Shown one piece after another: positions 4,405 through 64,000 of a stretch of 64,000 bases of DNA. The notes beneath the pieces were generated by a model, which saw only the letters and a list, made by a program, of their open reading frames with translations, was not told the DNA's origin and ran no database searches. Position 1 is the first letter of the stretch, and each line of letters starts with the position of its first letter. Source of the DNA: Cyanophora paradoxa CCMP329 (Eukaryota > Plantae > Glaucophyta); the NCBI GenBank assembly GCA_004431415.1, contig QPMI01000109.1:83606-147605 (forward strand), given 5' to 3'. A program made the translations under genes and the position numbers.

Positions 4405-5413
4405 CGATATCGATGACGGGTGCGGCTGCACGCCGATCCCGAGCCGCGATCAGGTCGCGAGCGAGGCCCCGGCGGAGGTGGGAGGCCTGGGAGAGGTCGG
4501 GCGGGCCGGGGAGGGCACCTCGACCGGCGACAGGACCGCTTCCTGCCGCCCCGCCATCGCGCCGACCGGCCCTGCGCCCGCCGGAGACCTGCGGCGGCCC
4601 ACGGCCCGTTAGAGGCTCGGACCGTCCTTCAGACATTGATCCGCCCGGCGGTTTGTCAAGCGTTCGAATTCGGAAAACGTAAGCTTCGCGCCCGATGTGC
4701 ATGCACAGGCCATGGCCACATGCATACGCAGCTAGCGCTCTGGCGCTGGAGCCGGCGACGGCCCGCAGCCGGCGATGTGCATGTGCCGGCGCTGGAGCCC
4801 GCGACGGCCCGCAGGCCTAGGGAGATGTAGGTGTAGTTGTACATGTTAGACGCAGAGTATGCGCACGTACGCGTATACGTACGCGACGTCTAGTAGAGAT
4901 GCGAACGGCCATGCCTAGTCCTATAGCTAGCATGACATGAAAAGCAGCGTGTCGCGCAATTGCAAGCTTAAAAAGCTTGAGACGGACACAGAGAAGGAAC
5001 GCACTTGCCGAAGGCGATCGGAAGAGCAGACAGCCTCGCTCTCGTTCCTGCGGGCGCCCGAGTCCCGAGCTCGAGTCTCCCGACTCTGCCCGCCGGTGGA
5101 GCGCTGAAGGGCGCGCGGCCGGCACGCCGGCTGCTGCTGATGCCCGTTGGATCGAGCTGCGCCAGCCGCGGCTAACGCGAGATACGCGGTAGAGAGCCTC
5201 GAGGCCCTCGACTCTAACTCCCTCGAGCTCCGCGACATGAGCTATCGATCTGCAACAACAACGTACCCGGCAAACGGGGAATTTCGAAGATTTCCGGAAG
5301 ACTACGGCCGGGTATACGTGATTTCGAAGCAATTCGAAGCAACTCTACGCTGCACGGTGCCTGCACCCCAAGCATCCATAGCTAGACAGCGCGGTGAGGC
5401 AACATCCGTTTCA

Positions 5414-46564: not shown

Positions 46565-47087
46565 GCTTTTCAACGTCGGCATCGACGCCTTATGCTGTAG
46601 ATCTTTAGTCTAGATCTAGATCTTAGATGATGAAAGTTTGCATTTTATTAATATTATTTTGATGGGTGTACTACGTACTGCCAGTGGGCACTGGCCAGTG
46701 GGTGTACTGCGCATGCCAGCTGCAGGGGCTGGGCTCCTTTGTTTTGAGATCACGATCATGATGACCATCATGGCATATGTATTCAAAACATGTACAAAAC
46801 ATGATCAAAGCAATTTGAGATCTAGATGGCCCCGGCGCCGCGGCGGCCGGCACACATAAAGAAATCTCTTCATGTGTGCCGGCGGCCGGCGCCGTGCCAC
46901 GTGCACGGACGGTCACGGCGGTGCGCCCGAGCCGATCGCGAGCTTTTCAACGTCGGCATCGACGCCTTATATGCTGTAGATCTTCAGTCTAAATCTAGAT
47001 GATGTGAGTTTGTATTTCATTATTTTCATGGGTCACACACCGGGTGTACTAAGCTTTCGTTTTGTCGTTTTGTGATCACGATTATGA
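46565..47087. repeat. Diverged direct duplication in a 3' intergenic region (46565-46761 / 46942-47087)
   Basis: Both copies start GCTTTTCAACGTCGGCATCGACGCCTTAT..GCTGTAGATCTT.AGTCTA and end near TTTTG.GATCACGAT.ATGA. Confidence 0.8.
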
Positions 47088-47346: not shown

Positions 47347-48662
47347 TCAGAAGAGGCCGTTCATGTAGTCCTGCGGGGCGGTCAGGGCCTCTCGGCCAGG
47401 GGCGGGGCGGAGCGGGGCGCACGCGGATGGCCTCCTGGATCTGTTCGCGGGTGTTCATCACGAAGGGGCCGTGCTGCACCACCGGCTGCCGGGCGGGACG
47501 GCGTCAGCGAGAAGGGAGGGGCGAGAGGGGGCGAGGGGGGGCGGGGCGGACCTCGCCGATGGGCCGCCCTGCGACGATGACGAAGCGGACGCCCTTGTCG
47601 CCGGCGACGACGGGGAGCTCGTCCCCGGGGCCCAGCACCAGGCAGTGGTGCGGCAGCCCCTCGTGCCCCTCCCCCCCGAACTTGCCCGCCCCGCTCAGCA
47701 CGTACGCGAAGCCTGCGCGCGGCGCTCGGCCCCGCCCCGCCCGACGACGGGGAGGCGAGCGGGGCCGCACCCTCGAAGTCGGGCTGGACGGGCTGCACGA
47801 AGCGGGCGCCGGGCTCGAGCTTCACGTCCAGGTACATCGTCGGCGTCCGCGTGTACACTGCGCGGCCCCCGCCCCCCGTCAGGCCTCGCGGGCCCCGGCG
47901 GCGCCCTCCCCCCTCTCTCCCCGGGGCCCCGCACCCTTGGCCTCGGTGCCGAGGGACTTGCCGGCGATGACGCGCACGGTGACCCCCTCGCCCTTGGCGA
48001 CCGGCACGTCCTTCGCCAGCAGCTCCTGGTACCCGGCTGCGCGAGGAGGTGAGGGGGGGAGGGGCGGGGGGGAGGGCCGCTCGGTCTCCGCGCACCCTCG
48101 CACATCTTATCAGAGGACTTGAGGTTGACCCAGAGCTGCGCGCCGGTCAGTGCTCGGACGGGGCTGGCGGGCCGGGGGGGCGGGCGGGCCTGGAGGCCGT
48201 GGTTGACGCCGTTGGTGGCCGGCATCTCGGAGTGGATGATGCCCCGCCCCGCCGTCATCCACTGCAGGTCAAGCGGCCCGATCGTCCCGCTGTGGCCCTG
48301 CCCCGCCCCGCCCTCAGCGGCGGCGGCGCGCCGGGCGGCGGGGACGGGGACCTTGTTGTCGCGGTGCGTGAAGGCGCCGTCGAGCATGTAGGTGACGGTC
48401 TCGAAGCCGCGGTGCGGGTGGTCGGGGAAGCCGGCCGGCGGCTCCACGAAGAACTCGTCCAGCATGAGGAAGGGGTCCAGCTGCCGCAGCTGCCGCGTCC
48501 CGATCGTCCGCCGCACCCGCGCCCCGTCCCCGTCCATCTGCTCGACCGCTGCCGGCGAGTGGGCGCAACTCAGCTTAGTGAACGCGCGGCGCCGCGCCCG
48601 CGCGCCGCACGGAGGCGCGCACCTTCGAAGCTCTGCTTGATGCTGCGGGCTGTGGGCGCCAT
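47347..48662 (-). CDS. PIR: Pirin
   Basis: LDPFLMLDEF, GFPDHPHRGFETVTY, LQWMTAGRGIIHSEMP, GLQLWVNL, EPVVQHGPFVMNT. Confidence 0.97.
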
Positions 48663-49160
48663 GGATGAGAACTTGGCGAGCTCGGGAGTAGTGAATGCCG
48701 CGGAGTGATCGTCGGGGCTTGCCGCGGAGGCGAAGGTGCGTGCGATGAGGAGACCGAACGCGAAGGTGGCGGCCGACGCCGGTGCACGTGCGGAGCGAGG
48801 ACGGCGGCTCGCGGAGATCGGTCGGGCGGATGCTGAGAGAGCGCTGCGGCTGAGGGACGCGGCGGAAGTCAGGCGGTGCGCTAGCAGTCCGGCTGGGTGG
48901 CAAGCGAATGCTGGCATACGCTGGAGAGTGAGCGCTCGAGTGCGGCCGCCGCTACCTCGTCCCGCGACCAAAAATGTCGTCGGCAACGCAACTGCGCAGC
49001 TGTGGCCGGTACGTCTGGCGCGTTGGTTGGTGAACTTGCCGATTTACGTCGTTTGCGTCTTCCGGGGGGAACAACCGGCTGAGGGGGGGGCAAACGGGGG
49101 ATACCCTCACCAAGCGCATTCAGCTAGCGAACCCACGGCCGGAGCCAGTTGCGGCTCCCG

Positions 49161-49786
49161 CGGCCCGCCGGCCGACTGGGAGCGCCGAGCAGCGATGGCT
49201 GAGCAAGAGGCAGCTTTAATCCTTGACCTGCCGGGTGCGCGTTCGAAAATTCGTTCGATCAGTTCCACGGCCCGCCGGCCGACTGGAAGCGTCGGGCAGC
49301 GATGGAGGAGCACGAAGCTGCTTCGATTCGCGACCTGCCGGGTGCGCGCTCGAAAATTCGTTCAGCTCCACATGTGTACAGCGCCTGCCCGGCCCGCCGC
49401 GCCGGCCGACTGGAAGCGTCGGGCAGCGATGGACGAGCGCGAAGCTGCGCATACTTCGATTCTCGACCTGCCGGGTGCGCGTTCTAACTCCGCTACGAAC
49501 TCCGCTAGCGCTCGGCATTTCCGCCGCCCCTTCGCTTCGAATTCCGGCTCATGATCATGATCACATTCGAATTCTTACGTATGTGTACTTTTTCTTTCGA
49601 TTCTGCGTCACAGATGATGTGATCTTGCTGGTGATGGAGAAAGTGGCGGCGGTCAGCGGGACGAAAGCCGCTCTGCTGGGCCTGGCCTCGGCGTGGGGCC
49701 GCTTTCGAGTGCTCGCGTACGGGGAGAGCTCCAAGCTGTTCGATGAGCCTGTTTTCGTCGGCGAAAGTTCTCCGGAGGAGCTCGAG
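49161..49786 (+). pseudogene. Truncated F-box gene with a triplicated first exon
   Basis: Three tandem units (ATG at 49195, 49302, 49429) each end GAC CTG CCG G|GTGCGC in the same phase. One acceptor (CAG 49611-49613) gives ...DLP-DDVILLVMEKV...LASAWGRFR. No further exon found before the AT-rich junction at ~49960. Confidence 0.7.
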
Positions 49787-50242
49787 GTGAGCCTGCAGAT
49801 GTTCGTGGGATATCGATCATTTTCGTCGCGATCGGCGATCTTTCCTCGTGCCACGGTGGCCCGCGGCCGTGCGTGGCCGCGGCCGGCGCCGCTTCACGAC
49901 GCTCCCAGCCCTAGACTCTTCTTTAGGATTCGAAGATTCCTGCCTCCGCCCACGAGCTAGCTGCTTTAATTTATTTTAATTTTATAAGAATTTGTTTTGG
50001 TGAATTACCGGCACACGTGGGCGATATATTCCTATATAGGTGGGCCTTTGTGAAGCGTTGAGCTCTCGAGCTTGCCCCTTCGCTGTCAATGCATTGTTAA
50101 CCCTCGGAGGTTGCATGAGTCACGCGTCGCGGAGGTTTGGGTGTTATATTGCGATCAGGTACACGCTGCACTAACAGGGGGGCTAGCACTAACCGACGCG
50201 GGGAGTAACAGCCGGTGTACCCCTCGGGGGGCCTCCCGGCCT

Positions 50243-51022
50243 CTAACGATGCTCAGGCTCTAACTGAATGCTGTACCCCCCGCTGTTACTGCCCGAACCT
50301 TCCGAACTTGCGTAATTCGGCCTCGCCCTGTACCCAGTGGCTGGTGTCGTCCATCCATTCGCGTACCTCCCTCTGACGCTTGAGTGACTCACGCTGCTCG
50401 GGGTAGGGGAGGGGGGCCTTCGAGGCGGGGTGGGGAAGGGGTACGGTGGCAAAATTCAGCCACTCGGGGGTATGCCGAATTCGCCGTGAACGATCCTCTG
50501 CGGTGTGAAATACCGGTCGCTGCTCACGGCCAAGTGGAAGAACGCGCTCCTGAGCCCGGAGAGGAAGCGTGGTTGCATGAATGGCTGCTGGAGGGACTCG
50601 TCGCGCCAGGGGGCTACGAAATCAATGATACGCTGCTGTACCTGCGCGGGCAGGGCAAGGATCTGGCTCTTGCGGTTCGCAAAGGCCGTCCACAGCGCTT
50701 GCAGGTCGGCCCAATCGCCGTTCAGATCCCTGCGTTCGCGCCTCAGGTACGATCTCGGGTTCTCTGTCATACCCATCAAGCCCGCGGCCCTGATCATCTC
50801 CCTGTCCGGGAGCTCTCGCTCGTCGTGGAATTCGTCTCTAATCCAGCGCACAAGGTAGAGCACGCGCTCCATGAAGTTCTCCGCCGGCGAGCCGCCCCCT
50901 GAGGACGTGCGCCTCCCCTCCAGCACTGCGTTCGCATCCTCCAAGTCCACGTTCCGCTGTCGAATCTCCCCGTCCAGGTCGCCGTTGTTGTACAGCACGT
51001 CGGACTCGCGTGTTCGCGCCAT
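50243..51022 (-). CDS. Element ORFan A with an in-frame TGA at 50456-50458
   Basis: MARTRESDVLYNNG...LQALWTAFANRKSQILALPAQVQQRIIDF...GIPPSG*ILPPYPFPTPP; the frame stays open to 50243. Confidence 0.6.
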
Positions 51023-51056
51023 GCTCGCGGCTCGGTGAGAATTTATACCTGTACCC

Positions 51057-51787
51057 CTACTCGCGGTCGGGGTATCGAGGGCCTGGCAGCCTCGCGCGCT
51101 TCCGCAGCTCGGCCTCGTCTGGCGACCAGCTCGTCGGATCATTGCTGTACTCCATCCACCTGCGAATCTGACCCTCCCGCAGTATCTCTTGGCGCTGCTC
51201 CGCCGTGGGCGCCGGTGGGCCGTACGGTGGGCCGGCAGGCGTCAGTTTTCTATACTTGTATCTCTTGAACCGTTCTTCCATATTGTCTTGTTCTTCGTCC
51301 CATCCTTCAGGGATCAAATCCGATGGGGGACATAGGGTACCACCCATTCATCTTCCTTGTTTTTGGCGTGGTGAACGAAGCCTTGGAAGTAGTGCTTCAA
51401 AATATTGAGCGGGCGATTGATGATCTCCGTGCGAGTGCCCGCATTCAGGAAGAGATCCAGTATAACTCTCTGAACGTCTTGGGGCAGGTAGGTCATGGGG
51501 CTCTTGCGCGAGCCGAACGCCCACCAGAGCTTGCGAAGTTCATCGCGAACCCTGCCCATGTCGTCCCTGTGTTCGATTTCGTACACCGGCGGCTCATACG
51601 TTCGGATGTCTACCCTGGACCCGAGGCCTCTGCGTGCCACATCGCGCAAATACGTCGCAGCCATGCCCCCGTCTCGCATTGTATTGGGGATCTCTTCTTT
51701 CACCCAGCCGATCAGCCCGTTTACCTGCTTAGTGTAATCTCGGATGTACCCCGATAGCGGTGGGAGGGTAGTCTGATTATCAGACAT
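51057..51787 (-). CDS. Element ORFan B, paralogue of A; probable frameshift in a C5 run at 51325-51329
   Basis: MSDNQTTLPPLSG...LRKLWWAFGSRKSPMTYLPQDVQRVILDL; one extra C joins ORF 51314-51799 to ORF 51057-51347. Confidence 0.6.
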
Positions 51788-51837
51788 ATGCATTCGCACA
51801 CATCAAGAAATTCTAAACGCTACTGCGAGGCTAAGCT

Positions 51838-52503
51838 ATGCATACCGATACAGATTGCGAGACTTGCGAGAACTTACAACAGGGGAGCGCGGCGTGGCAC
51901 GCGGCGCGCCGTGAAAAACTAACTGCATCTAATTTTGCGGCTGCGTGCGGTATAAACCCCTGGAAATCCAGGGCCCGCCTGTGGGCGGAGCTAAGCGGGA
52001 TAGCGGAGGAAAACAACTTTGACAACCCTGCCCTAACCTACGGGCATGACTATGAGCCCTTCGCGGTCTCTCTCTACAAAACGTTGAACAATAACGTGGA
52101 CGTGCAACATACTGGATTGCACGAACATAAGGAACTGCCCTTCCTGGCGGGGAGCCCGGACGGGCTAATCGGAAACGATCGCATACTCGAAATAAAATGT
52201 CCGTACAAACAAGAACTCTACGACAAGGTTCCTACCTATTACATGACGCAGCTGCAAGGACTTTTAGACATAACGGGCCGCGAGTGGGCCGAACTTTTTT
52301 GCTTCACGCCTCTGCGCGTGCAACCGTGGTACGTCAGACGGGACGAGAGGTACATCGAGCTCATGCGGCGGTGCTTACATCTATTTTGGATGCACGTGAA
52401 GGCTGGAACTCCGCCCGAGCCCTACAGCGATCGAATGAAGTCAGAGAACCTCAGCGAGGAGCAGGCGGCGCTGCGCGAGTTTAAGTCGTACGCCCTCCTC
52501 TAG
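51838..52503 (+). CDS. YqaJ-like viral recombinase / lambda-type alkaline exonuclease
   Basis: QGSAAWHAARREKLTASNF, YGHDYEP, LAGSPDGLI, LEIKCPY, YYMTQLQ; intact and intronless. Confidence 0.93.
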   Translation: MHTDTDCETCENLQQGSAAWHAARREKLTASNFAAACGINPWKSRARLWAELSGIAEENNFDNPALTYGHDYEPFAVSLYKTLNNNVDVQHTGLHEHKELPFLAGSPDGLIGNDRILEIKCPYKQELYDKVPTYYMTQLQGLLDITGREWAELFCFTPLRVQPWYVRRDERYIELMRRCLHLFWMHVKAGTPPEPYSDRMKSENLSEEQAALREFKSYALL

Positions 52504-52751
52504 TGTCCGACCCTCTCAGATATTAATTTAAAGATCTGGGAGGGTCGGGACACGTCTCTTGGTCAGACTACTTATGTACGCCCTCCTCTAGTGTCTCGAC
52601 CCTCTCAGATATTAATTTAAAGATCTGGGAGGGTCGGGACACGTCTCTTGGTCAGACTACTTATGTACGCCCTCCCTCCTCTAGTGTCCGGACCTTTCCA
52701 ATAATCTATAAAGAAAGTAGGGAGGGTCCGGACACGTCTCTTGGTCGGACT
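52488..52751. repeat. Three tandem ~88-bp units, each with a ~50-bp AT-centred imperfect palindrome
   Basis: TGTC(C/TC)GACCCTCTCAGA-TATTAATTTAAAGA-TCTGGGAGGGTCGGGACA at 52504-52552 and 52592-52641; diverged third copy at 52685-52734. Confidence 0.93.
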
Positions 52752-53028
52752 CACCGTAGCTTGGTGTAGCTCAGGCCCAGGCGGGAAGGCGAGTCTGCAA
52801 TGAATCAGACCCCACAGGATTTGGTTGAGCTGCTCTTTGCAGGGGGCAGGAAGGCGGCCGCAGAGGGCTAGGGAGACTAGATCTAATTAGTAATCCCACA
52901 CCGCGCATGTGCAAGCGACAGAGAACGAAGTGAGTAAATGCAGATCGATGATACGGCAATCATGAGTTGTTCAGAAAAGGTCGGGACACATAGAGAGTGC
53001 ATGCCCTCACTCTCGTCCGCCCTCGCAA

Positions 53029-53077
53029 TGTCCCGACCCTCCCAGATCTTTAAATTAATATCTCAAAAGTCGAGACA
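53029..53077. repeat. Same palindrome family, opposite orientation
   Basis: TGTCCCGACCCTCCCAGATCTTTAAATTAATATCTCAAAAGTCGAGACA; an extra half-site lies at 52971-52988. Confidence 0.9.
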
Positions 53078-53178
53078 TTCATTGATCATATGCATGACGT
53101 CACTTGAATTCGCACGTTCGTATTTACACACTGGCACGCGCATCCCGTTCGCGAAGTCCACACTGTGACATCCGACAA

Positions 53179-56100
53179 TCACACGCGCCTGTGAATGAGA
53201 GCATAGCAGTCGGAGAAAACGTTGTAAACCTCTGGGAAGCTTGGCGCCATGCCTGCCCTTGCCTGCTTAGCCTGGCGCTCTACTGCGTCGTCGAGCATGT
53301 CTTCCTCCCACGTGATGTAGCGTCGCTTTCGGCTGCCCATTTGCCCTCCGTCCGCGTCGGAGAAAGCGCGTCTCACTCCGAGGTACTTCTCCAGCAGGTA
53401 CTTGATGACTTGCCAAGACTGCTGCGAGAGCCGCTTCTTCTCACCGTCCGCTGCATCGAAGCGGGGCGCGCGCTCGTCCAGACTCTGCAGAGCCGCGTAC
53501 GCCTCCCGACCCTCCGGCGACGCCAGGGCCGCGTAGGCTTCGTCCGACCACAGAGCACGCCCCGCGAGCTTTCCATACCCCCGCCAGCCGAAGAGTTTCT
53601 TGAACAGCGCGACGACCTTCGATACCTTGAGGCGCTCAGCAGTAGGCACGATCTCGGCAACGTCCGCGCCATGCTTCAGCACCAGCGTGACCACGGCAGT
53701 GAGCGGGATGGAGTAGAACGAATCCCACATCCAGGCGACGTCTCCTTCGGTCAGCTCGCTCGGATCCTTGGCCAGGAACGCGGCGATCGACGTGCGAGCA
53801 AGCGAAGCAACCTTCTCGATGTCCAGCTTAGCGAGAGACTCGCGGGACTGCCTCCAGGCCAGCACCGTGCTCCACAGATCGACGGGCTCCAGCGCGCCCG
53901 CCTCCAGCACGCTCCTGATCTCGCGCAGCCGCTGCTCCTTCTCCTGCTTCGGTCCGCTCGGGTTTTGATCCTCCGTGACTTGCACGTTCATCAGCGCGCA
54001 GGTCGACATCAGCCGCAGGCGCGCTGCCACTGCGAGGCGCCGAGTGGGCATGCCGGCGCGGCGGCTCCCGCGGTGGCTAGCCTTCAGGTCCAGGTAGCGC
54101 TGCATGTCGTCCGAGCTCTCGTCGTCGTCGCTCTCACGCCAGTGCGCAGCCGCCGCGCCGACCGCAACCGAGGGCGTCCGGTTCTTGCGCACGGCGACGA
54201 GCAGGTGCTCCCGTCGGGCGTGCTGCGTTTGCGCAGCCTTCTGACTCGAAACAGCAGCTGCACGATGTCGTCCGCCTCCAGCTGCGCGGGCTCTGCCTGG
54301 AACACGCCGTAGACCTTGTCAAAGTGCGCGTCCGAAAAGTCCACGCCTGCCCCGAGCGCGGAAGTTGCGATGAGCACGTCGCAGGCCTTGTACGCGCCCT
54401 CCTCAGACACATCGATCGACACGATGCGCACTGGGCCCTCGTTCGTGAAGCGCACGCTCTTCTCCTTGGCCTGCCCAACGATGAGCCCGATCGTGAACGG
54501 TGCGCCGCTGCCGTCCTCGGCCCTGCCTCGAGCTGAGTCACGTACTGAGCGCCGCCCAGGCTGAGCTGCTCCAGCGCCTGCTTCGCAATCTTCTCCTGCA
54601 GCTCGATCGCCTTGGCCGGCGTCTCCGCGATGATCATGGCCCGCGAGCGCCCAGGTCGGCACTGCACCATGATGTCCGCCTCGACGTGCGCCGGGCTGTC
54701 TGACACGCGCATCTTCCAGTCGCAGGTGCGATGCGAGTTGTACAGGAGCCCCAGGCGCGCCCCGACCTCCTGCGCCGACTCTGCCAGGTACGCGAGATCG
54801 ACCGACCGAACGAAGCCGTCCATCGCCACGATGCGCGATGCCTTCATCACGCCGCGCCATAGGCCCACGCAGCGCGCGTTTCGAGGCACTGACCGCATAC
54901 CTAGGTGCAGGCCGGTGGGCTCGAGGGTGCCGCTCGAGGTGAGGTGCTTCGTGAGGGAGGAGAGCTCGTCCAGCACGACCAGTAGCGGCGCCGTCGACCA
55001 GCCCTCCCAGTCCTCGAGCACCTTGTGCAGCGAGTCCCATGTGATGACGACGCACCTGCACTCCTCATGGCGGAAGCCCCACTTGCCATGCGATCCCTTT
55101 GAGCTCTCCGGTGGCTTCTTGATGTCCATGTAAAGCACGGCGTCCTTTGACAACTCCGCAGCATCAATGCGACGCTTGAGGTCGCGGGAGAAGGCCCGGC
55201 GGCAAGTCACGAGGATCACTCGCCAGCCGCCTGCGAGGGCCGGGTCCAGGTACGCATCGATCAGCGCCTGCGTCTTCCCCGTGTTGAGTCCCGAGCAGAT
55301 GACGTCGACCTGCGGCTGAGCGGATCTCGGGTTCTGCTCCAGCGCCCCGAATGCGGAGGTAAGGATCTTGCACGAGAGGTGGCGTTCATCCACTGCATTG
55401 ACGCAAGCCTCCAGGCCCGTCGACTCGAGCGCGATCAGGAGGGAGGGGAGGGCAATGTCGAAGGCGACAGGCTGCGAGGGATCGGTCACATAGCGGGTCT
55501 GTGCCACGCTGCCCGACTCCCCTCCGGTCCCCTCCCCCTCGAGCTCGACTTCAATACCGTGCGCCTGGATGGAGATTCGAGCCGCCGGCGCCCCCGGCTG
55601 ACTCCCGCCCAGGACGAGGGTGATGGACCCGTCGGGCTCGACTCCAAGGTGCTGAACGCGGCGGGCGTCGTGCAGGCCAAGGTCCGCGCGCAGCTCTGCC
55701 CCCGCCTTCCAGATCTCGTCCCTCACCGCCTTGTTCTTGCGCAGGCGGTCCAGGAGCCGCTCCAAGGCCGGCAGGCTTGGGCTCGAATCCAGGAGAGCGC
55801 CCGGCTCCGGGATGGGCTTAGCGCGGGGCGCCGAGCTTCTGGATGGAGTGGGGAGGAGCTCCGCTCGCGGCCCGGGCGCCGGCCCCCGCAGAACGTAGCC
55901 CCCCGTGCCATCCACACCGAGCTCCAGGCCGCTCGAGCTCCCAAAGAACCATGCCATGAGATCGCAAGCCTCCGGGCTCTGTAGGACGTAGGCAGCCTTG
56001 AATCCATTATCCAAGGGCGAGAGAAAGTGAAGCCTCCGAACTTGGTTGCAAAGGCGCAGGCTGCCGCGGTGCTCGTCTCATCCTCGGCACCCGAGAAGTG

Positions 56101-56298
56101 GCTGGGGGTGATGCAGGGCGGGTGGAAGACGCAGAAAGCCGTCCCCAGGGTCGGGCTGCAGGCCTTCTGGACTTCGACGAGAGGGAATCGAACGAAAAAG
56201 CTGCACTCCTGCTCGCTCAGATCTATCTGCTGTACCCCGGGCCCGGGCATACGGGCCAGGAAGGCGTCGACGTCGAGAGACACGCGTCCGGTTGCCAT
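53179..56298 (-). CDS. UL9-like (Herpes_ori_bp family) SF2 origin-binding helicase; about three frameshifts (~56015, ~54520, ~54190)
   Basis: ICSGLNTGKT (motif I), ILVTCRRAFS, VVITWDSLHKV, VVLDELSS, IVAMDG; next frame LIATSALGAGVDFSDAHF and QLLFRVR. Motif order matches UL9-type helicases. Confidence 0.82.
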
Positions 56299-56388
56299 GG
56301 TCGTCTCTCTATAGCTAGGCTTGGAAAATTCTAGATCTACTAGGCTAGTCAACGTCTGTTGGCTAGCTATAGTCGACGTCTGGACTGC

Positions 56389-56524
56389 TGTCTCGACCTT
56401 CTGAGATATTAATTTAAAGATCTGGGAGGGTCGGGACAGGCTCTGGTCCGTCTGGATCCGGACTGCTCAGCGGCTGTCTCGACCTTCTGAGATATTAATT
56501 TAAAGATCTGGGAGGGTCGGGACA
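56389..56524. repeat. Two more palindrome copies (56389-56438, 56475-56524; period 86)
   Basis: TGTCTCGACCTTCTGAGATATTAATTTAAAGATCTGGGAGGGTCGGGACA occurs twice. Confidence 0.93.
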
Positions 56525-57580
56525 GGCTTTGGTCCGACCTTAAGCGCTCAACTAGACCCGGTTGACACCGTCTTGATCTCTCCTTCTTGGCGCAGCGGAC
56601 GATGTGACGCGCAGACCGTCGGCCCGGCGGACGGGGAGGCGCGCGCGTAGAACTTCGGAAGCGCTAGCCCCTTGCTTGACCGAAGCTTAGAAAGTTTTGA
56701 GCGCACGTGAATGCGACACGTGTAGAGAGAAGGCAGAGCGCGCCGGAGCTAGCTTGCGCGGCCGAGCGCTCGACCGCCTTTGCTCCTAAGCTCAGAAAGT
56801 TTTGGGCTCACGCGGTTGCTCCACGTGTTTCGACTCAAAACACAGTACCCCAACCCGAAAAAAAGCGCCCGGGCAGCGCATCTCGCAGCGCCCGGGCCCA
56901 GCGCTCCTTGCAGCACTTGCCAGAGGCACTAGCTTGCATTCCGCTCAGCCCGGAGAGCCGCCGCCTCGCTCCTTTCGATTCGGAGGTGCGCCTCACTTCG
57001 CAACCTCTTTCTCCGCACCACGGCTAGCTCCGGACCTCAGATTTTGGGCGCTGGAAAGCTCTCTCGACGCCGCACTCACGCCGCCACGCGCAGGGTCGCT
57101 CGCGCCGGCCGCGGACCTTCGAAAGCTCGATGGCGCCCGAGCCGGAGCACTCCGCCGCATCCCGCAGGTGCCAGCTCGCTCTCTTGCCGCTCTATCCCTT
57201 GCATTTAGCACCTAGAACATGCCCCGCAACCTCGCGCTCGATTCGCCCGCGTCCGCTGACATTTGGTCTCTGAGCAGGTGCCGAGATTGGCCGCCGCGCC
57301 TTCCGCAACTCGAGCCGACGTTCGCGGCGACTTGCGCACGCTTCTAGATCTCGTTCTCAAGCCCGCGCATCGATTCGGCGGCTCCGGCTCGCCTCCCCGC
57401 GCCTCCAGCCCCGCGCCCCACACCCGTTCTTGTCCTAGCTAAGCCCTCCCTTGTCCGCGGCCAGTCGCGGGCTACGCGCATCGCGGATAGCATCAGTGGA
57501 GCTACGTTTCAGCGCTGGACGCAGGCCCGCCCGCCCAATCCCTCCCACCTCCCGCTCGCAGCACGCTCACTGGGCCGCAG

Positions 57581-58823
57581 GCAGCTTCGCGGGGAGCCGC
57601 TGGATTCGAAGCCGCGCACCTTCCCCGCCCGTCCCGACGTCGTACGCGCTAACGTCGCCCGCGCCGCAGGTGGCCGCCAGGCCTCCTGCATCCAGGCCTT
57701 CGAGCCGGCGTGGCTGCGGGCGCAGCGCCTCGGCTTCTGGCAGGAGACGGCCTCCTGTCCCCTCACCCGCTTCATCATCGCCCACTGCGCCGTCGACCCC
57801 ACCACCTACGTCGCCGCCCCGAACACGGAGGGCTACATGACGAGCGTCGCGGGCATCGTCGAGTACATCGCGCGCACGGAGGGCCCCGACACCTCCGCCG
57901 CCGTCGGCGCCGACATCGAGAACGGCCGGCTGGACGAGACCCTCGCCGGCTTCGGCTCCTGGTGCCGCCCCTACTCCTACAAGCTCGGCGGCGTCTGGCA
58001 GACCTACATCCGCGGCATCGTCCCCAAGGCCCCGCTCTCCCTCGGCGAGAGCCAGCCGGCGCTGGAGGCGATCGCGATCCCCGTCGCCCAGTTCAAGGAC
58101 CCGGCGCCCGACGTCGGGCCCTTCCTCGTCAAGCCCCACACCAAGGGCAAGGGCAAGCGCACCCGCAACTCGGCGCCGGCCTTCCTCCCGCCCCAGCCCC
58201 CCGCCACGGCCCCCAGCAGCGCCCCGGCCAGCAGCGCATCGACGAGATGCTGCCGCGCCAGGTCCGGCCCCGCGTACCCCCGCCTTCCCTCCCGTACCCC
58301 CCTCCCCCCGCCCCCTCCTGATCCAAGGGCAGGGTACCCCGACGAACGGCGGCGCGGGCCCGAGCGGCTACGGGAGCTCGGCCTCCTCCGCGAGCGCCGA
58401 CGGCCCCAGCCCCCTCCCCGGCCCCGGCGCCGTCCTCACGCGATCCAGGGCTTCGGGGCCCAGCAGGAGGCCGAGCGGCGGGCGCTGGCGGCGCGCCAGG
58501 CGCGCGAGGCGGAGGAGCGGCGCCAGGCCCTCTGGGCCCAGCGCCTGCAGGCCACCATCGCCTTCCGCGCCGAGCTGGACTCCGGCTTCCGCGCCGGCCA
58601 GATCGCCGGGGCGGAGGCCTCGGAGCGCTGGCGGGCGTTCGAGGCGGAGTCGGCGGGGCTGGCGAAGGGCCTCGGCTACAGCTACCGGCGCGTGCCCGTG
58701 CTCAAGGACTACGCGTCGGCCGCGGCGCGGGAGGCCTCGCGGGCGGAGATCGACGCGGCGGAGGAGCAGGCGGCGCGCGAGGAGGCCGAGGACAACGCGC
58801 GCTTCCGGCACCTGCACCACTGA
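57581..58823 (+). CDS. Element gene with host-type spliceosomal introns; C-terminal coiled coil; start not resolved
   Basis: Exon ...CPLTRFIIAHCAVDPTTYV...GVWQTYIRGIVPK; branch GCTAAC plus acceptor CAG at 57667-57669; GT-AG intron 58262-58332. Confidence 0.55.
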
Positions 58824-58872
58824 GGCCCCGAGGCGGTATTTTTTCTCAACCCTCCCTCAATTCGGTCCCGCG

Positions 58873-59124
58873 ATGGCCTTCGAAGCTTATCCTGCCCACT
58901 ACTCGCTAGGAGCGCTGGCCGCGACCCTCACCTGGCTCCTCGGCGGCACCCCCACGGCCTCGGCGGTCATAGGCGTGGGCTTCGGCTACGCCGCCAAGTC
59001 CCTCTACGCCCCGGCGGCGCCTCGCAGGCGGCGGCCGGCATGCGCCCCGCCGGGCGCTAACTTTTCAAAGTTCATTCTCCCCTCCCCTTTTCCGAGTTCC
59101 GAGTCCGTTGGCGTTCCCTTTTAA
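58873..59124 (+). CDS. Small hydrophobic ORFan
   Basis: YSLGALAATLTWLLGG...AVIGVGFGYAAK; upstream TTTTTCTCA motif. Confidence 0.55.
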   Translation: MAFEAYPAHYSLGALAATLTWLLGGTPTASAVIGVGFGYAAKSLYAPAAPRRRRPACAPPGANFSKFILPSPFPSSESVGVPF

Positions 59125-59154
59125 ATTTTCTTCATTCTCGTTACACGTTCGAAG

Positions 59155-59634
59155 ATGTCGAGCGCGGTAGAGAAGCTGCTGTGCACCGTGTTCAAATCGG
59201 ATTCGCGATGCAGCAAGATCGGCGAGGCGGCGAGGGCTAAGGGCGGGGCGGCGGCGGAGGGGCCCAGGGTGAAGGCGGCGGATCCCGCGCCGCCGTCGCT
59301 GAAAACGATCAAGGGGGCGGGCAAGGGCAGGAGCGTGGGGGCGCTGCCCCTCGTGGCGATCGCGCCGGGGCAGAGGGAGGCGGCGCACGCGGCGACGGCG
59401 GCGCTGGCCGCGCGGCGCCAGGCGGAGGCCTACCCGTGCCTGGGCCGGGGGCTGCACCCGCCGGCCGACCGCCCCTACGCCGTGAGCGCCTACTTCGACG
59501 AGGCCAACCGGCTGAGCTGCCAGGAGCTGTGCGACAACCGCATGCGGCGCGCCGTGGACGGGCACCTGCCGCTGCTGGTGGCGCTGGGCGGCTCGCTCCT
59601 GATGGTCTGGTACCTGCGCGGCCTGGTCATTTAG
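59155..59634 (+). CDS. ORFan with Cys residues and a C-terminal TM anchor
   Basis: Ends LPLLVALGGSLLMVWYLRGLVI; tightly packed between its neighbours. Confidence 0.7.
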   Translation: MSSAVEKLLCTVFKSDSRCSKIGEAARAKGGAAAEGPRVKAADPAPPSLKTIKGAGKGRSVGALPLVAIAPGQREAAHAATAALAARRQAEAYPCLGRGLHPPADRPYAVSAYFDEANRLSCQELCDNRMRRAVDGHLPLLVALGGSLLMVWYLRGLVI

Positions 59635-59660
59635 ATAGTTTTTCGAAGTCTAGGTCAAAG

Positions 59661-60062
59661 ATGGGCTGGGTGGACGCCGTGCTGACCAAGGTCTTCGGAC
59701 CGAAGAGCGCGCAGCCGCCGCCGAGCTTCAACCTGGCCGCGGCGATCAGCACGACGATCGAGCGCAAGAACAACGAGCTCATCCTAAAGAACGACGGCAA
59801 GCTTCCCTGGGCCGACGTGGCCGCGGGCGCACTCGGCAGCACGCTGACGGGAATCGATCGGACGGGCGCCGCGGGCGTGAAGGTCGGGCAGGCGGTTGCG
59901 GCCGTGCCGGAGCTTGCGATGAAGGGCTGGCACTACGCCAAGATCGCCGCCGGCGTCGCCGCGGTGCTCCTTGCGATCTGGCTCGCGTGGCAGCTGCGCG
60001 GCGCCTACCAGGGCGCGCGCCTGCAGAGCGCCCAGCTCGACTATTTTCTAAAGGCTAGGTAA
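59661..60062 (+). CDS. ORFan with an MG N-terminus and a TM helix
   Basis: MGWVDAVLTKVFG...IAAGVAAVLLAIWLAWQLR. Confidence 0.7.
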   Translation: MGWVDAVLTKVFGPKSAQPPPSFNLAAAISTTIERKNNELILKNDGKLPWADVAAGALGSTLTGIDRTGAAGVKVGQAVAAVPELAMKGWHYAKIAAGVAAVLLAIWLAWQLRGAYQGARLQSAQLDYFLKAR

Positions 60063-60074
60063 AGCGAGCGAACC

Positions 60075-60447
60075 ATGCGCGGCGGCTCTTCCCCCGTGTT
60101 TCCTTCGCTGAGAACCCGGTGGCGAACGCAGTCGCCCCTACCCCCTGGAGCCCGGAGTGAAGCTGGAGCGTGCGAACGCAGTCTCCGTCAAGAAGGCCAA
60201 GCGCACGCTGGCGCTGGAAGTCCCGGTCGCGGAGGATACGGAGAAGGTTGCATTCAACAAGCGCAAGACGTACAAGGCGATACGCGAGGGACAGCTGCTG
60301 CCCACGGACTCGGTTCCCGGGCTGCCGGGCACCACGGCCGGCGAGCTCCTAGTGCGCAACCTGCGCCTGCAGTACGTCTCCCGCCTCCGCCGCTCCAAGG
60401 CCAAGAAGGCGCGCCTGGACTCGGGCGATAGCAGCTCTAGCTCGTAG
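60075..60447 (+). CDS. Small basic ORFan (probable frameshift near the 5' end)
   Basis: ATG at 60075 follows ATTTTCTAA; main frame VKLERANAVSVKKAKR...RLRRSKAKKARLDSGDSSSSS. Confidence 0.5.
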
Positions 60448-60563
60448 GGCTCTGTACTGTTGTATTCAATGCCTTTACCAGTTCCTGTTCCTATCCCAGA
60501 GCACGACTCGGGTGAAGGGCACGGTCATAGCGAACATGAACTCGGCGAACTTTGCAAAGTTCA

Positions 60564-60757
60564 TCAGGGTTCCCAGGCGGGGATCCTCCAGTAGATCGCC
60601 TCGCGCAGCGCCTCGTAGACGCGCATGAGGGAGCGCTCGTTCTCCGTCGCGAAGGCGTCGCCGGGCTCGTCGGGGTCGGGATCCGTGAGCTCGGAGTACT
60701 CGTCCGAGCTGCCCGCGCTCTCGGCACCTGCGGCGGGTCGGGCGAGGGGTCGGGCAT
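60564..60757 (-). CDS. Small acidic ORFan (probable frameshift)
   Basis: ATG at 60757; acidic frame SSDEYSELTDPDPDEPGDAFATENERSLMRVYEALREAIYWRIPAWEP. Confidence 0.45.
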
Positions 60758-60805
60758 TCTTTGCTGGTAGAAGGGTTAGAAGAGGGACCAGAAAATCACT
60801 AGCAA

Positions 60806-61147
60806 TCACGGGCGCCGGAACTCCATCGAGTCGCCGCGCCAGTACTTGTTGCCGGAGGCGAGCAGCTTCATCGGCTCGCCCGTCGAATCGTGCTTCCAGG
60901 CCTCGCCGTCCCAGAGGGCCGTGCCGCCGTCCTCTAGCTTGAGGCGGTGGCCCGGCTCGAGCCGGTTGCCGTCGAGCATGCGGCCGGCCATGAGCGCCAG
61001 GTCCCACTCGGTGAGGTTGCGCTGCTCTGCGGGGGTGAGGCCGCGCTCGACGCGCTCGGGCTGGCGCGCCTCGCGCTCCATGCGGCTGAGGCCTACCAGG
61101 AAGAAGATGGGCAACGCAAAGGCCATGAGATCTAGCAGGGCCTCCAT
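60806..61147 (-). CDS. ORFan with an N-terminal hydrophobic anchor
   Basis: MEALLDLMAFALPIFFLVGLSRM...ALWDGEAWKH; upstream CTTTTCTAA. Confidence 0.65.
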   Translation of the reverse strand: MEALLDLMAFALPIFFLVGLSRMEREARQPERVERGLTPAEQRNLTEWDLALMAGRMLDGNRLEPGHRLKLEDGGTALWDGEAWKHDSTGEPMKLLASGNKYWRGDSMEFRRP

Positions 61148-61156
61148 TGGGCAGAC

Positions 61157-61444
61157 TTAGAAAAGGTTCCGGACCAGGCCCGAGAGCTGCGGGCCCAGGC
61201 GCCGGGCGGCGTAGTAGAGCGCGGCCGCCGCCGCCGCAAGGATCAGAAGGCGCGGCGGGCCGCGCGCCGGCTCCTCCAGGGTCAGGTCCACGGTCTCCGG
61301 CCCGCGCGCCGGAGCCGCCAGGATCTCGGGCTCGGAGCAGAGGGACTTGGGCCCGCGGCGGCGGCGCTGCTTGGGCGCCGAGGCGGCGGCGGTGAGAAGG
61401 TCCTCAGGCTCCTGCTTGATACCTGCGCAATCGGTGAAGTCCAT
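61157..61444 (-). CDS. ORFan with a C-terminal TM
   Basis: MDFTDCAGIKQEPEDL...PKQRRRR...TVDLT...LLILAAAAAALYYAARR. Confidence 0.65.
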   Translation of the reverse strand: MDFTDCAGIKQEPEDLLTAAASAPKQRRRRGPKSLCSEPEILAAPARGPETVDLTLEEPARGPPRLLILAAAAAALYYAARRLGPQLSGLVRNLF

Positions 61445-61512
61445 GCTTGCTGGGTACCTTGGAAAATTGTGGGAGGCGTCCGGAGTGTGCGAACGTAGCT
61501 CCAATGGGATTT

Positions 61513-62174
61513 GCGTCATTTACGTCCGCGTCATTTACGTCACGGAGTTTGCCGGCGACTCGGGACTCGGGCCCAACTTCTCCCGGTAAGTTCGAGACTT
61601 GAACTCGGCGGGGTACCCCCGGTGTCCTAGTGTCCTAGTGTCCTAGTGCTACTAGCTAGGTGGTATCGATATCTAGCTAGCTAGCGCTAGCGCTTGCTTA
61701 ATTAATTAACCTGAAGGGTCGCGTCATTTACGTCAGCGTCATTTACGTCACGGAGTTTGCCGGCGACTCGGGACTCGGGCCCAACTTCTCCCGGTAAGTT
61801 CGTCACGACCAGTAGCTACTAGTACCGCTAGTACTACGTAGTACTACTTAGTACTACTTGGTACTACTTAGTACTACTAGCTTAGTACTAGTAGCCACCG
61901 ATACTGGTACAGCTTTTATAGATTTAAGCATTCATTCAATGTGAATAACGATAATAGTAATAATAATAACGATAAGTAATAGGGATACCCTATTTTTCCA
62001 AGTCTCGAACTTACCGGGAGAAGTTGGGCCCGAGTCCCGAGTCGCCGGCAAACTCCGTGACGTAAATGACGCTGACGTAAATGACGCGACCTTCGGTAAC
62101 CTCCGCAACCCTTCAGGTAAATGTCAGGTAACTTCAGTTGAGTTAATTAAGCAAGCGCTAGCTAGCTAGATATC
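61513..62174. repeat. Inverted-repeat control region
   Basis: An ~85-bp unit occurs at 61513-61601 and 61721-61802 and inverted at 61999-62091. Extended arms 61668-61802 / 62007-62174. The spacer holds AGTACTACTT repeats and an AT-rich tract; (GTGTCCTA)3 at 61622-61645. Confidence 0.92.
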
Positions 62175-62594
62175 ACAGCTCTACCTTGCCCAAGTTGATG
62201 GTATCTAGCAGGGCCTGCTCCTCCAAGTCTGCACCGCCGCCGCCGCCCAGCGCTAGCGCTAGCTCGATACCGCCTCCGGCCTTGATCTCCCTTGGCTCCA
62301 GCCACCTGAGGGGCTCAGGCCACCTCCTCCTGGTGAAGCCGGTATCGTTGCTCTTGTCCAGCTTGAGGTAGCGGTAGGGCGCCGGCGCCGGCCAGTCCGG
62401 CCTGTGGCCGCTTGCCTCCTTGGCTATGTCCTTGGCCTACGCGGTCGCAGGTCCGCCTTGGCCTTCGCCCTCTGCAAGGGCCCAGCGCCTTGAACTTCGG
62501 TGCCTTGGTCGCCGGCAGGGCCTTCGGCTGGGGCTTCACCGCCTTCGGCTGCTGAGGCCTTAGCTGCTTCGATTTCGGCATACTTCTTGCTCAT
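62173..62594 (-). CDS. ORFan (frameshift near 62430); start overlaps the upstream stop as ATGA
   Basis: MSKKYAEIEAAKASAAEGG... and ...APYRYLKLDKSNDTGFTRRRWPEPLRWLEP...INLGKVEL*. Confidence 0.5.
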
Positions 62595-62818
62595 AATGAG
62601 AAAAGCGCCTCGAAGTCGGCCTTTATCTCCTCCTTGGTCCAGGATGTCACCTGATCCGGGTCACCTGAGAACGGCGCATCGAACGCCACGTGGAGCGATT
62701 TGCAGGCCTGAGCTATCATTGGCTCGGGCCAGGCCAGCTCGATCAGCTGAAGGTAGATGTTCAGGGCCTTGTCGAGCTTGGCGCCCTGAGAGACTAGCTG
62801 GGAGATAGCGGGCTCCAT
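62591..62818 (-). CDS. Small helical ORFan
   Basis: MEPAISQLVSQGAKLDKALNIYLQLIELAWPEP...FEALFSL; upstream ATTTTCTAA. Confidence 0.6.
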   Translation of the reverse strand: MEPAISQLVSQGAKLDKALNIYLQLIELAWPEPMIAQACKSLHVAFDAPFSGDPDQVTSWTKEEIKADFEALFSL

Positions 62819-62901
62819 GTACAGCAGAGCTTTAGAAAATGGCGCCAAGTCCAAGTCCTTTTTTACGGGCGAGGCCTGGCCGGGGCCAGGGCCGAGTCCC
62901 A

Positions 62902-63013
62902 ACTCCGTGACGTAAATGACGCTGACGTAAATGACGCGGACGTAAATGACGCCGAATTTTCAAGTTGCCCTCACCTGAAACTCAGCTGAGCGCTCACCTG
63001 ACCCTCACCTGAA
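62902..63013. promoter_or_regulatory. Putative divergent promoter: three GACGTAAATGACG repeats then CTCACCTGA repeats
   Basis: Lies between divergent ORFs; shares AACTCCGTGACGTAAATGACGCTGACGTAAATGACGCG with the 61.5-62.1 kb unit. Confidence 0.6.
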
Positions 63014-63077
63014 CGGCCTCAAAACCGCAGCCCCGCCGCGCCCTCTCCTCACACTTCAAAGCCAAGAGAAATCAAGA

Positions 63078-63304
63078 ATGTGCATCCCACGTACTTCACC
63101 TGCTGTCTCACCTTCGGCATCTTCGCATACGTCATATACGACGATGAGTTCGACCGAAACACGTTCTACTTCTGCAAGCTCCTTCGCGACATTTCGTCGG
63201 AGCACCGCAAGGGCGATGAGTATGATTGGATTCAACTGCTCCCCCTCAAGAACGAGATCGTACTGTGGAGAGAGAAGTGCAATTGTAGGCAGGTTCAAGA
63301 TTAG
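63078..63304 (+). CDS. Small ORFan with a hydrophobic N-terminus (start or frame uncertain)
   Basis: PTYFTCCLTFGIFAYVIYDDEFDRNTFYFCKLL... Confidence 0.4.
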
Positions 63305-63462
63305 CTCGATTCGTGTAGCCGTCGTAGAGGATCTGATGGTGAATTGAACACGTGTTTTTACCTGAATCACCTGAGCGCTCACCCGAGGTCAGCTGAAGTC
63401 GGGTGGGGCGCCTTAAATATTTTCTAGCGCTAGGCTGAAGCACACTCTAAGCTAACGCAAAC

Positions 63463-64000
63463 ATGGCCACCGTCCGCAACGCCAACGAGATCGACCCCGC
63501 CAAGCTCGCCTTCGAGATCGACGCCAACGGCCGCATCAGGCCAAGTACGACGGCCTGCAGGGCCTCATGATGTACGCGCCGCCCATGGTCACGATCAACC
63601 CGTGCATCAACACAGAGCAAGGCAAGGCGTGGAGCGACGAGAAGAAGGCCTTCGTCATGGAAGAAAACGGCGGATTTTACACGCTGGACCTCACCGATCT
63701 CAGCGCCGTCGACGGCCAGACGAACCCAGCCGCGGACGAGTTCCTCAAGCTGCTGGAGGCCCTGGACGCGAAATTCTGCGAGTTCGGGCAGCAGAACCAG
63801 GCCAAGCTCAAGGTCTCGCCGGCGCTCCCTCTCCAAGGATCAGATCTTCGGTGCTGCAGACGCCCAGCGTGCGCATCAAGGTCGACAAGGAGTCGGCCAG
63901 GCCTTCTACAAGTACCTCAACATGCGCATCCGCACCCAGACGATGGCGGGCAAGCGCAAGAACCGTGCCCGTCGTCGACATGTCCAACTACCTCATCACC
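63463..64000 (+). CDS. Probable viral single-stranded DNA-binding protein (OB-fold, DUF2738-like); frameshifted and partial
   Basis: MATVRNANEIDPAKLAF.../GFYTLDLTDL...DEFLKLLEALDAKFCEFGQQNQ...FYKYLNMRI; the FxxxLxxLDxx...N helix pattern resembles large-DNA-virus SSBs (recognised by eye). Confidence 0.5.

Follow-up and report, generated by a model that had tools for sequence, protein, structure and literature searches.

The glaucophyte alga Cyanophora paradoxa CCMP329 carries a virus-like multicopy element in which six AT-centered palindromes surround a gene for a superfamily 2 (SF2) helicase that resembles UL9, the origin-binding protein of herpes simplex virus 1 (HSV-1). We analyzed a window of 64,000 nucleotides (contig QPMI01000109.1, positions 83,606 to 147,605), in which positions are counted from the first base and which holds the left 14 kb of the element. 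The palindromes (c1 to c6 in Table 1) have arms that pair around an AT loop and are confined to the flanks of the helicase gene, whose product has a UL9-like motor; we predict that they are the cognate binding and opening sites, and hence replication origins, of the helicase that they flank, a function in which our belief and our doubt are about equally matched.

All six palindromes lie where an earlier note, made from the sequence alone, had placed them. Each consists of 19-bp arms (20 bp with the closing pair; the note had given 17 to 18 bp) around a 12-nt AT loop, and the central 20 nt of the units are 85% AT, compared with 37% for the element. The note's count of three plus one units downstream of the gene and two upstream also stands, with the addition that c4 stands alone and in the orientation opposite to that of the other five; its tandem period of 86 to 89 bp fits c1-c2 (89) and c5-c6 (86), while the second spacing in the c1-c3 array is 93. 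A 29-nt core searched with up to three mismatches allowed gave five matches in the 64,000 bases, all of them exact, against 0 of 100 shuffles with any match, and none of the copies lies in the 50 kb of host flank in the window. Folded on the strand named in Table 1, the five distinct units reached z scores of -4.6 to -8.0 (equally good shuffles, 0 of 200), and all five folded 3.5 to 12 kcal/mol better on that strand than on the opposite one. Unit ends read TGT...ACA, and no target-site duplication was found at the units, where the flanking bases are instead complementary (G-C, C-G, or A-T). We compared the window with contigs from 8 of 24 listed sequencing runs, three of DNA and five guessed to be of RNA (four studies); contigs of other runs show a one-letter difference in c1 and another in c4. 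An ungapped hairpin scan of positions 50032 to 64000, which bulged hairpins can escape, recovered five of the six units (c4 was missed) and, beyond them, one AT-rich tandem repeat and three GC-rich hairpins within open reading frames (ORFs). No unit-like palindromes were found at the ends of the roughly one dozen other ORFs of the element, and c5 and c6 precede the helicase start, where no sense gene terminates. The exact core had no match in the metagenomes searched, and Rfam over 15 kb returned three weak matches to microRNA hairpins, all far under the gathering score.

Table 1. Positions of the palindromes, genes, and other features within the 64,000-nucleotide window
Feature	Position	Strand	Remarks
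Palindrome c1	52503..52553	+	Its closing base doubles as the final base of the YqaJ stop codon
Palindrome c2	52591..52642	+	20/20 pairs, 2 of them G.T
Palindrome c3	52684..52735	+	Second sequence type, diverged; inner pairs decayed in the window
Palindrome c4	53028..53078	-	Single; opposite orientation to the other five; ~100 nt beyond the helicase stop
Palindrome c5	56388..56439	+	90 nt ahead of the helicase ATG
Palindrome c6	56474..56525	+	Tandem copy of c5, 86-bp unit
Orphan half-site	52979..52988	+	Equals the outer right arm GGTCGGGACA; no partner arm or loop
UL9-like SF2 helicase	53179..56298	-	~1040 codons; three frameshifts in the window
Spliced antisense RNA over the helicase gene	53036..56433	+	12 GT-AG introns of 49-117 nt; contigs leave true ends unfixed
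YqaJ-like PD-(D/E)XK nuclease	51838..52503	+	Pfam; closest viral relatives in mriyavirus-like contigs
Second origin- or enhancer-like region	61513..62952		Repeats and inverted arms
SSB-like gene	63460..64000	+	Frameshifted in the window, cut by the window end
Virus-like multicopy element, left 14 kb	50032..64000		Left boundary ~50032-50062; right end beyond the window

In an alignment of the six copies, 113 of 118 cells pair, whereas slid controls did not exceed 60%. Changes on both sides of a pair occur at 4 of the 20 pairs, a count reached in 3 of 500 shuffles; one of these is the pair that closes the unit, found as G-C, C-G, or A-T in three unrelated flanking contexts. The five transition-type mismatch columns are all T.G on the named strand and never A.C, and three more columns hold other mismatches. 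CpG deamination was rejected as the cause of this bias, as no T.G column coincides with a CpG and CpG is not depleted in the element (observed/expected, 1.08); the host does methylate viral DNA at CpG, according to the available part of one report (PMC12344493). Among the five copies of the same type, the loop and right arm are identical despite unrelated flanks, and all four variable columns fall in the left arm (P = 0.017), so the sequence is constrained as well as the shape. Judged from these copies, the loop and right arm are kept in sequence and the left arm mainly in pairing, a pattern which suggests that the unit acts either as a one-strand hairpin or as an inverted pair of sites that is opened asymmetrically. 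At least three palindrome types occur in this genome, and the composition of the arrays varies between element copies: in a reconstruction from partial contig ends, other copies would carry a variant of the c3 type that pairs better, with CCAATA ahead of the loop and TATTGG behind it, and also a third unit type whose inner arms are exchanged.

The UL9-like helicase gene recognized in the earlier note is real, in that it matches the Pfam family Herpes_ori_bp (PF02399; E value, 1.1e-6; 27.5 bits against a curated cut-off of 20), and it is broken in the window by three frameshifts, near 54210, 54518, and 56014. Most copies of the gene are probably intact, because a DNA run differs by one letter at each of these three places (46 to 100% of the summed depth) and in other gene models the frame continues across two of them. 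The protein is laid out as an N-terminal region of unproven fold, a RecA-type motor, and a helical C-terminal domain. A paralog, P0100, aligns to the PDB chains of HSV-1 UL9 over motifs I, Ia, V, and VI, at both ends of the motor (E value, 0.011). For the C-terminal domain, a structural model with a predicted local distance difference test score (pLDDT) of 64 had as its top match among 48,161 chains the origin-binding protein of HSV-1 (9hgi_A, residues 547 to 825), the very domain expected there beforehand; the 172 aligned residues are the longest aligned length listed, with a root mean square deviation of 4.7 and a Z score of 5.9, which is under the tool's reliable level and tied with unrelated helical proteins. 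Foldseek gave this model weak matches to giant-virus origin-binding proteins (E values, 0.27 to 0.41), an Atlas search with the C-terminal domain gave no match, and the single-sequence fold of the domain had a pLDDT of 40; the Atlas look-alikes of the helicase include the plasmid initiators CyRepA1/RepA (0.93). At the N terminus, Pfam and PHROG gave no match to an archaeo-eukaryotic primase, and inspection of P0083 and P0101 by eye revealed a motif-II-like stretch without the acidic motif I; to the eye, the primase motifs look degenerate.

Four helicase subfamilies are present in this genome, with 38 to 67% C-terminal identity between types. Outside it, the longer proteins in a crowded listing included no relative at an E value of 0.001; searches returned five matches from 1.84 billion representatives and nine from 7,990 candidates, with all named ones from the same organism, and no relatives were found in the viral contigs or metagenomes. 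A helicase profile found nothing across 80 YqaJ loci, and among 35 viral loci with a loose version of the arm pattern, tblastn detected a UL9-like gene in none. Two candidate relatives, L001 and L002, were rejected as a phage SNF2-like helicase with motif II alone in common.

The depth of contigs in two DNA runs, which gives no exact copy number, steps up at about 50032 to 50062, from 45 to 73 and 9 to 18 in the host flank to 2370 to 2400 and 670 to 840 over the helicase. Exact look-up of three neighboring ORFs led to clusters of C. paradoxa gene models, two of which contain at least 18 and at least 21 accessions on many contigs. Depth and gene models together indicate an element of dozens of copies that starts near 50.0 kb and extends past the window. 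Its YqaJ copies are mostly 92 to 94% identical, and the five best viral relatives of this nuclease lie on contigs that resemble gamadvirus-type mriyaviruses, one of which (L038) carries by Pfam a nucleocytoplasmic large DNA virus capsid, an A22 resolvase, an A32 ATPase, and VLTF3. Of 22 gene clusters drawn from gamadvirus-like loci, two match the element, namely the nuclease and a putative single-stranded DNA-binding protein (SSB; profile E value, 9e-7; 41% identity over 44 amino acids to the L041 gene in the corresponding position), the SSB label resting on gene order and the literature without a family match; the gamadvirus protein with which it would correspond is the T7-like SSB PEV_26. 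The left 14 kb of the element, which continues beyond the window, contains no detectable major capsid protein, packaging ATPase, VLTF2/3, RuvC, or HUH endonuclease gene, and about a dozen of its small ORFs have no family matches. From the genes that it does share, the element is probably related to mriyaviruses, and mriyavirus-related regions embedded in a glaucophyte assembly are described in the accessible part of a recent preprint (10.1101/2025.04.19.649669).

RNA evidence comes from contigs, which give neither RNA ends nor strand and provide hints, and the five runs, guessed to be of RNA, show joints that the three DNA runs lack. Introns of the antisense RNA over the helicase gene were seen in four studies, and none of the joints listed within the gene lies on the sense strand. 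An ad hoc intron pattern fitted to the antisense introns has nine candidates on the antisense strand and one on the sense strand, a hint that splice signals of the host are avoided in the sense direction. The antisense RNA has no long ORF near its 5' end, and an overprinted protein was rejected, since the longest ATG-initiated ORF (235 amino acids) stands behind at least nine earlier ATGs; we likewise rejected the idea that the joints mend the helicase frame, as they are GT-AG on the opposite strand and one would remove the Walker A codons. Antisense contigs reach 56431 to 56433, inside c5, in all five RNA-like runs; because the assembly graph joins the shared core at this point, they show entry into c5 and not an end there. 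Beyond c6 the depth falls in three of the five runs (23 versus 267 in X15, 28 versus 255 in X16, and 0 versus 825 in X20), rises in X18 (246 versus 92), and is unclear in X17. Left of c4 it drops at least 8-fold in X16, X18, and X20, with a step up just right of c4 in X16 (35 to 280) and X18 (381 to 6136), and contigs from two studies stop at 53115 and 53120, 50 to 60 nt from the AT core. On the other side, a YqaJ contig in X18 stops within the loop of the first unit and the depth in X20 goes from 6359 at 52715 to 0 by 52781, whereas X16 is nearly flat across c1-c3 (52 versus 35) and some contigs run from c1 into c2 (278 in X18 and 316 in X20). No poly(A) was present among the 24 loose contig ends listed. 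Separately, positions 53090 to 53515 have very high contig depth in three RNA-like runs from 2024 (as high as 53,000 in X20), well in excess of that over the remainder of the helicase gene, a signal that hints at a short RNA or a 3'-biased end beside c4 and may derive partly from a diverged paralog.

HSV-1 UL9 binds inverted boxes around an AT spacer, followed by a one-strand hairpin, in the portion of a recent study available to us (PMC12543377). By analogy we infer that the C-terminal domain of the C. paradoxa helicase would bind the arms as inverted boxes, that the AT loop would then melt, and that one strand would refold into a G.T-tolerant hairpin, which the helicase and the element's SSB-like protein would keep open as UL9 does at oriS/oriS*. 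Together, the helicase gene and the units on its flanks would make up a replication cassette, of which several sequence types would have arisen by divergence in this genome, and RNA ends at the units would arise secondarily, from AT-rich patches with bound protein in otherwise GC-rich DNA. An origin function best explains the confinement of the units to the helicase flanks, the copies ahead of the start codon, the constancy of loop and right arm, and the retention of an orphan half-site at 52979. The cognate initiator-origin pair proposed in the earlier note finds support in the UL9-like motor, a weaker C-terminal likeness, and this confinement, and is challenged by RNA boundaries at the units and by a second origin-like structure 5 kb away.

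Several further observations weigh against an origin function. By itself, c3 accounts for three of the four two-sided changes, and the inner arms, which vary with compensation, differ among unit types inside one array and so do not represent a single fixed box. In most runs RNA cover drops where the units lie, and for each unit the strand transcribed into it is the one that folds better. On the protein side, there is the low Z score of the C-terminal match, Foldseek against the PDB did not find UL9 with the same model, and the RVKNL recognition motif is absent from the C-terminal domains of all four subfamily proteins (one look-alike falls in motor motif VI). No homolog outside this genome was found that would display a conserved pairing of gene and palindrome, and mriyaviruses are proposed, in the part of the source available, to initiate with an HUH nickase, with SF2 and SF3 helicases being interchangeable (PMC11253617). 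Finally, the region at 61513 to 62952 has higher DNA depth and no RNA cover. It contains nine copies of the 15-bp TGACGTAAATGACGC (0.03 expected) and near-perfect inverted arms of 86 to 89 bp around a 203-bp AT-rich spacer with AGTACT repeats, and the 15-mer tandem had no match in the viral contigs; we regard it as a candidate origin or bZIP-type enhancer, the latter label being our assumption from two TGACG half-sites.

The strongest competing explanation, which we consider possible but rather unlikely, is that the units are RNA 3'-end or termination hairpins, with c1-c3 ending the YqaJ mRNA, c4 ending the convergent helicase mRNA, and c5-c6 stopping the antisense RNA before the helicase promoter. 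This would best explain their orientation, since every unit sits in the sense direction behind a transcript (c1 at the YqaJ stop, c4 about 100 nt past the helicase stop, and c5 where the antisense RNA runs in), and also the G.U-only wobbles, the better folding of the named strand in all five distinct units, and the depth steps, both the losses beyond c6 in X15, X16, and X20 and the halting of YqaJ RNA at the first units in X18 and X20. A precedent exists in the Mimiviridae, which polyadenylate mRNA at hairpins (PMC4402537, as far as the available text goes). Yet, as far as the ungapped scan shows, none of the element's other ORFs ends in such a hairpin and no such family is present in seven related viral loci (99 kb), and the depth past c6 in X18 (unclear in X17), the read-through from c1 to c2, and the flat profile of X16 over c1-c3 do not conform; nor does the lack of poly(A) at the listed ends. 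RNA that holds both arms argues that not all transcripts are cut within the loop, and an identical loop and right arm are not required of a terminator. Origin and 3'-end functions can both hold.

One-strand hairpins with wobbles are the usual substrate of HUH proteins, and the units could be nicking or recombination sites, used by an HUH nickase or in YqaJ-promoted exchange, that border a swappable helicase cassette. The helicase is indeed far more variable between copies than most YqaJ genes (four types, compared with 92 to 94% identity), arrays are composed differently from copy to copy, c4 and c5 stand in inverted orientation on either side of the helicase gene, and all mriyaviruses encode an HUH protein, to judge from the accessible portion of their description (PMC11253617). 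We think this improbable, given that the 14 kb of the element within the window yielded no HUH or recombinase gene, that the loops differ among unit types and so offer no fixed nick motif, that DNA depth over the helicase lacks the rise expected of an excised circle and remains even beyond c6, to about 57700, and that no inversion joint is among those listed, though contigs break at the shared core. A shade less probable still is that the units control transcription, c5-c6 as promoter sites for the helicase mRNA and c4 for the antisense RNA, with the true origin being the inverted repeat at 61.5 to 63 kb. The position of c5 just ahead of the helicase ATG, the climb in RNA depth right of c4 (X16 and X18) with contig stops at 53115 and 53120, and the iterated 15-mers, inverted arms, AT-rich spacer, and missing RNA cover of the 61.5- to 63-kb region agree with such a division of roles, which leaves compensatory pairing and one-strand wobbles unexplained and would have c1-c3 drive RNA against YqaJ, of which there was no sign. 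That the unit is a tiny transposon (miniature inverted-repeat transposable element) or a neutral repeat landed by chance is very improbable: the TGT...ACA ends suit a transposon and tandem duplication by itself can multiply units, but the 50-bp length, the compensatory variants, the complementary, nonduplicated flanking bases, and the 0 copies in 50 kb of host flank do not, and the scattering of copies through host DNA that the earlier note had named as fatal to its proposal was not seen as far as this flank allows.

The predicted UL9-type system resembles that of HSV-1 in the inverted GC-rich arms around an AT-rich spacer, a putative one-strand hairpin, the SF2 helicase with UL9-type motifs, the C-terminal domain whose modeled structure has its best, though modest, match in the UL9 DNA-binding domain, and an SSB or SSB-like gene encoded by the same element. 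It differs in having six units, known here from sequence, in arrays that adjoin the helicase gene of an endogenous algal element, in 19- to 20-bp arms that pair across the AT loop where oriS* pairs Box 3 with Box 1, in lacking the RVKNL motif and the GTTCGCAC box, and in the extra N-terminal region of the helicase. Likeness to the Mriyaviricetes (Yaraviridae and "Gamadviridae") extends to the PD-(D/E)XK nuclease and SSB-like gene, closest to those of gamadvirus-like contigs, and to the UL9-related helicase with an N-terminal extension, as in their SF2_hel group; by contrast, the 14 kb within the window shows no capsid, ATPase, VLTF3, RuvC, or HUH gene, and Yaraviridae SF2_hel is reported with an intact primase, whereas the primase motifs here look degenerate by eye. 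The mriyavirus literature, in the parts available, describes no origin. CyRepA1 (Slr7037 of the cyanobacterial plasmid pSYSA) is a related primase-helicase type of initiator that also has an antisense RNA nearby and, in the available text, needs a neighboring locus to replicate the plasmid and is controlled by that RNA (PMC9978351); it belongs, however, to a bacterial plasmid, its antisense RNA overlaps a small upstream gene, and identity is 25 to 46% over short motor stretches. The Mimiviridae share palindromic hairpins at transcript ends in a giant-virus relative, whereas the hairpins here are limited to one locus of a GC-rich element that is transcribed and spliced in the host nucleus and whose other genes lack them. 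Baculovirus hrs are imperfect palindromes in short tandem units that are dispersed around the genome, and the earlier comparison with them applies to the tandem arrays of imperfect palindromes and not to the distribution, the units here being restricted to one gene's flanks in the part seen.

Other features of the window and of the viral contigs are recorded here. Gamadvirus-like contigs L038-L042 and L062 carry capsid, nuclease, SSB-like, ATPase, and VLTF3 genes in a conserved order. Viral contigs L003, L005, L006, L008, L010, and similar ones have a common 46-bp site with TGTCCCGAC/GTCGGGACA ends that resemble the outer arms; in these contigs the core of this site differs from that of the units, and no UL9-like gene is nearby. 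Between c6 and the next gene are two 44-bp direct repeats, 80% alike and 105 bp apart (56680 to 56828), followed by an ORF without a Pfam match (57348 to 58823, plus strand) that is divergent from the helicase and the first part of which, by eye, may resemble a D5-type winged helix. Positions 60090 to 63961 show at least 12 one- or two-letter differences from high-depth contigs of other runs, and several small ORFs there are probably broken only in this assembly. In host DNA, three repeats of about 107 to 130 bp (49158 to 49487) lie immediately left of the element boundary, and a hairpin with a 22-bp stem and 4-nt loop (46841 to 46888), unrelated in sequence to the six units, lies behind a pirin gene (47350 to 48620, minus strand).

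Endogenous viruses of C. paradoxa and oriS-like origins as a kind have been reported. In the literature that we covered on the host, its viral elements, YqaJ with origin binding, and mriyaviruses, which leaves out most subscription journals, the palindromes are not described; what is new is a candidate UL9-type origin in a provirus probably related to mriyaviruses, together with natural variation in each partner. Helicases related to UL9 are found in giant viruses, African swine fever virus, and some mriyaviruses, and we know of no cognate origin for them outside the herpesviruses; to our knowledge, mriyavirus replication has been inferred from gene lists only. In a bolder and unlikely form of our proposal, a UL9-type initiator-origin pair outside the herpesviruses would have branched, inside a single algal genome, into four or more helicase types, each matched by a palindrome type of its own, as specificity groups comparable to plasmid incompatibility groups, and the origins would also bound a spliced antisense RNA that holds the initiator down while the element is integrated. 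The four helicase subfamilies and at least three palindrome types make the idea of cognate pairs easily testable, and a candidate initiator, candidate sites, and natural variants of both are available in an alga that can be cultured and that holds dozens of transcribed, apparently intact element copies of near-identical sequence. If the units are 3'-end signals instead, they would represent a local hairpin terminator operating under host nuclear transcription.

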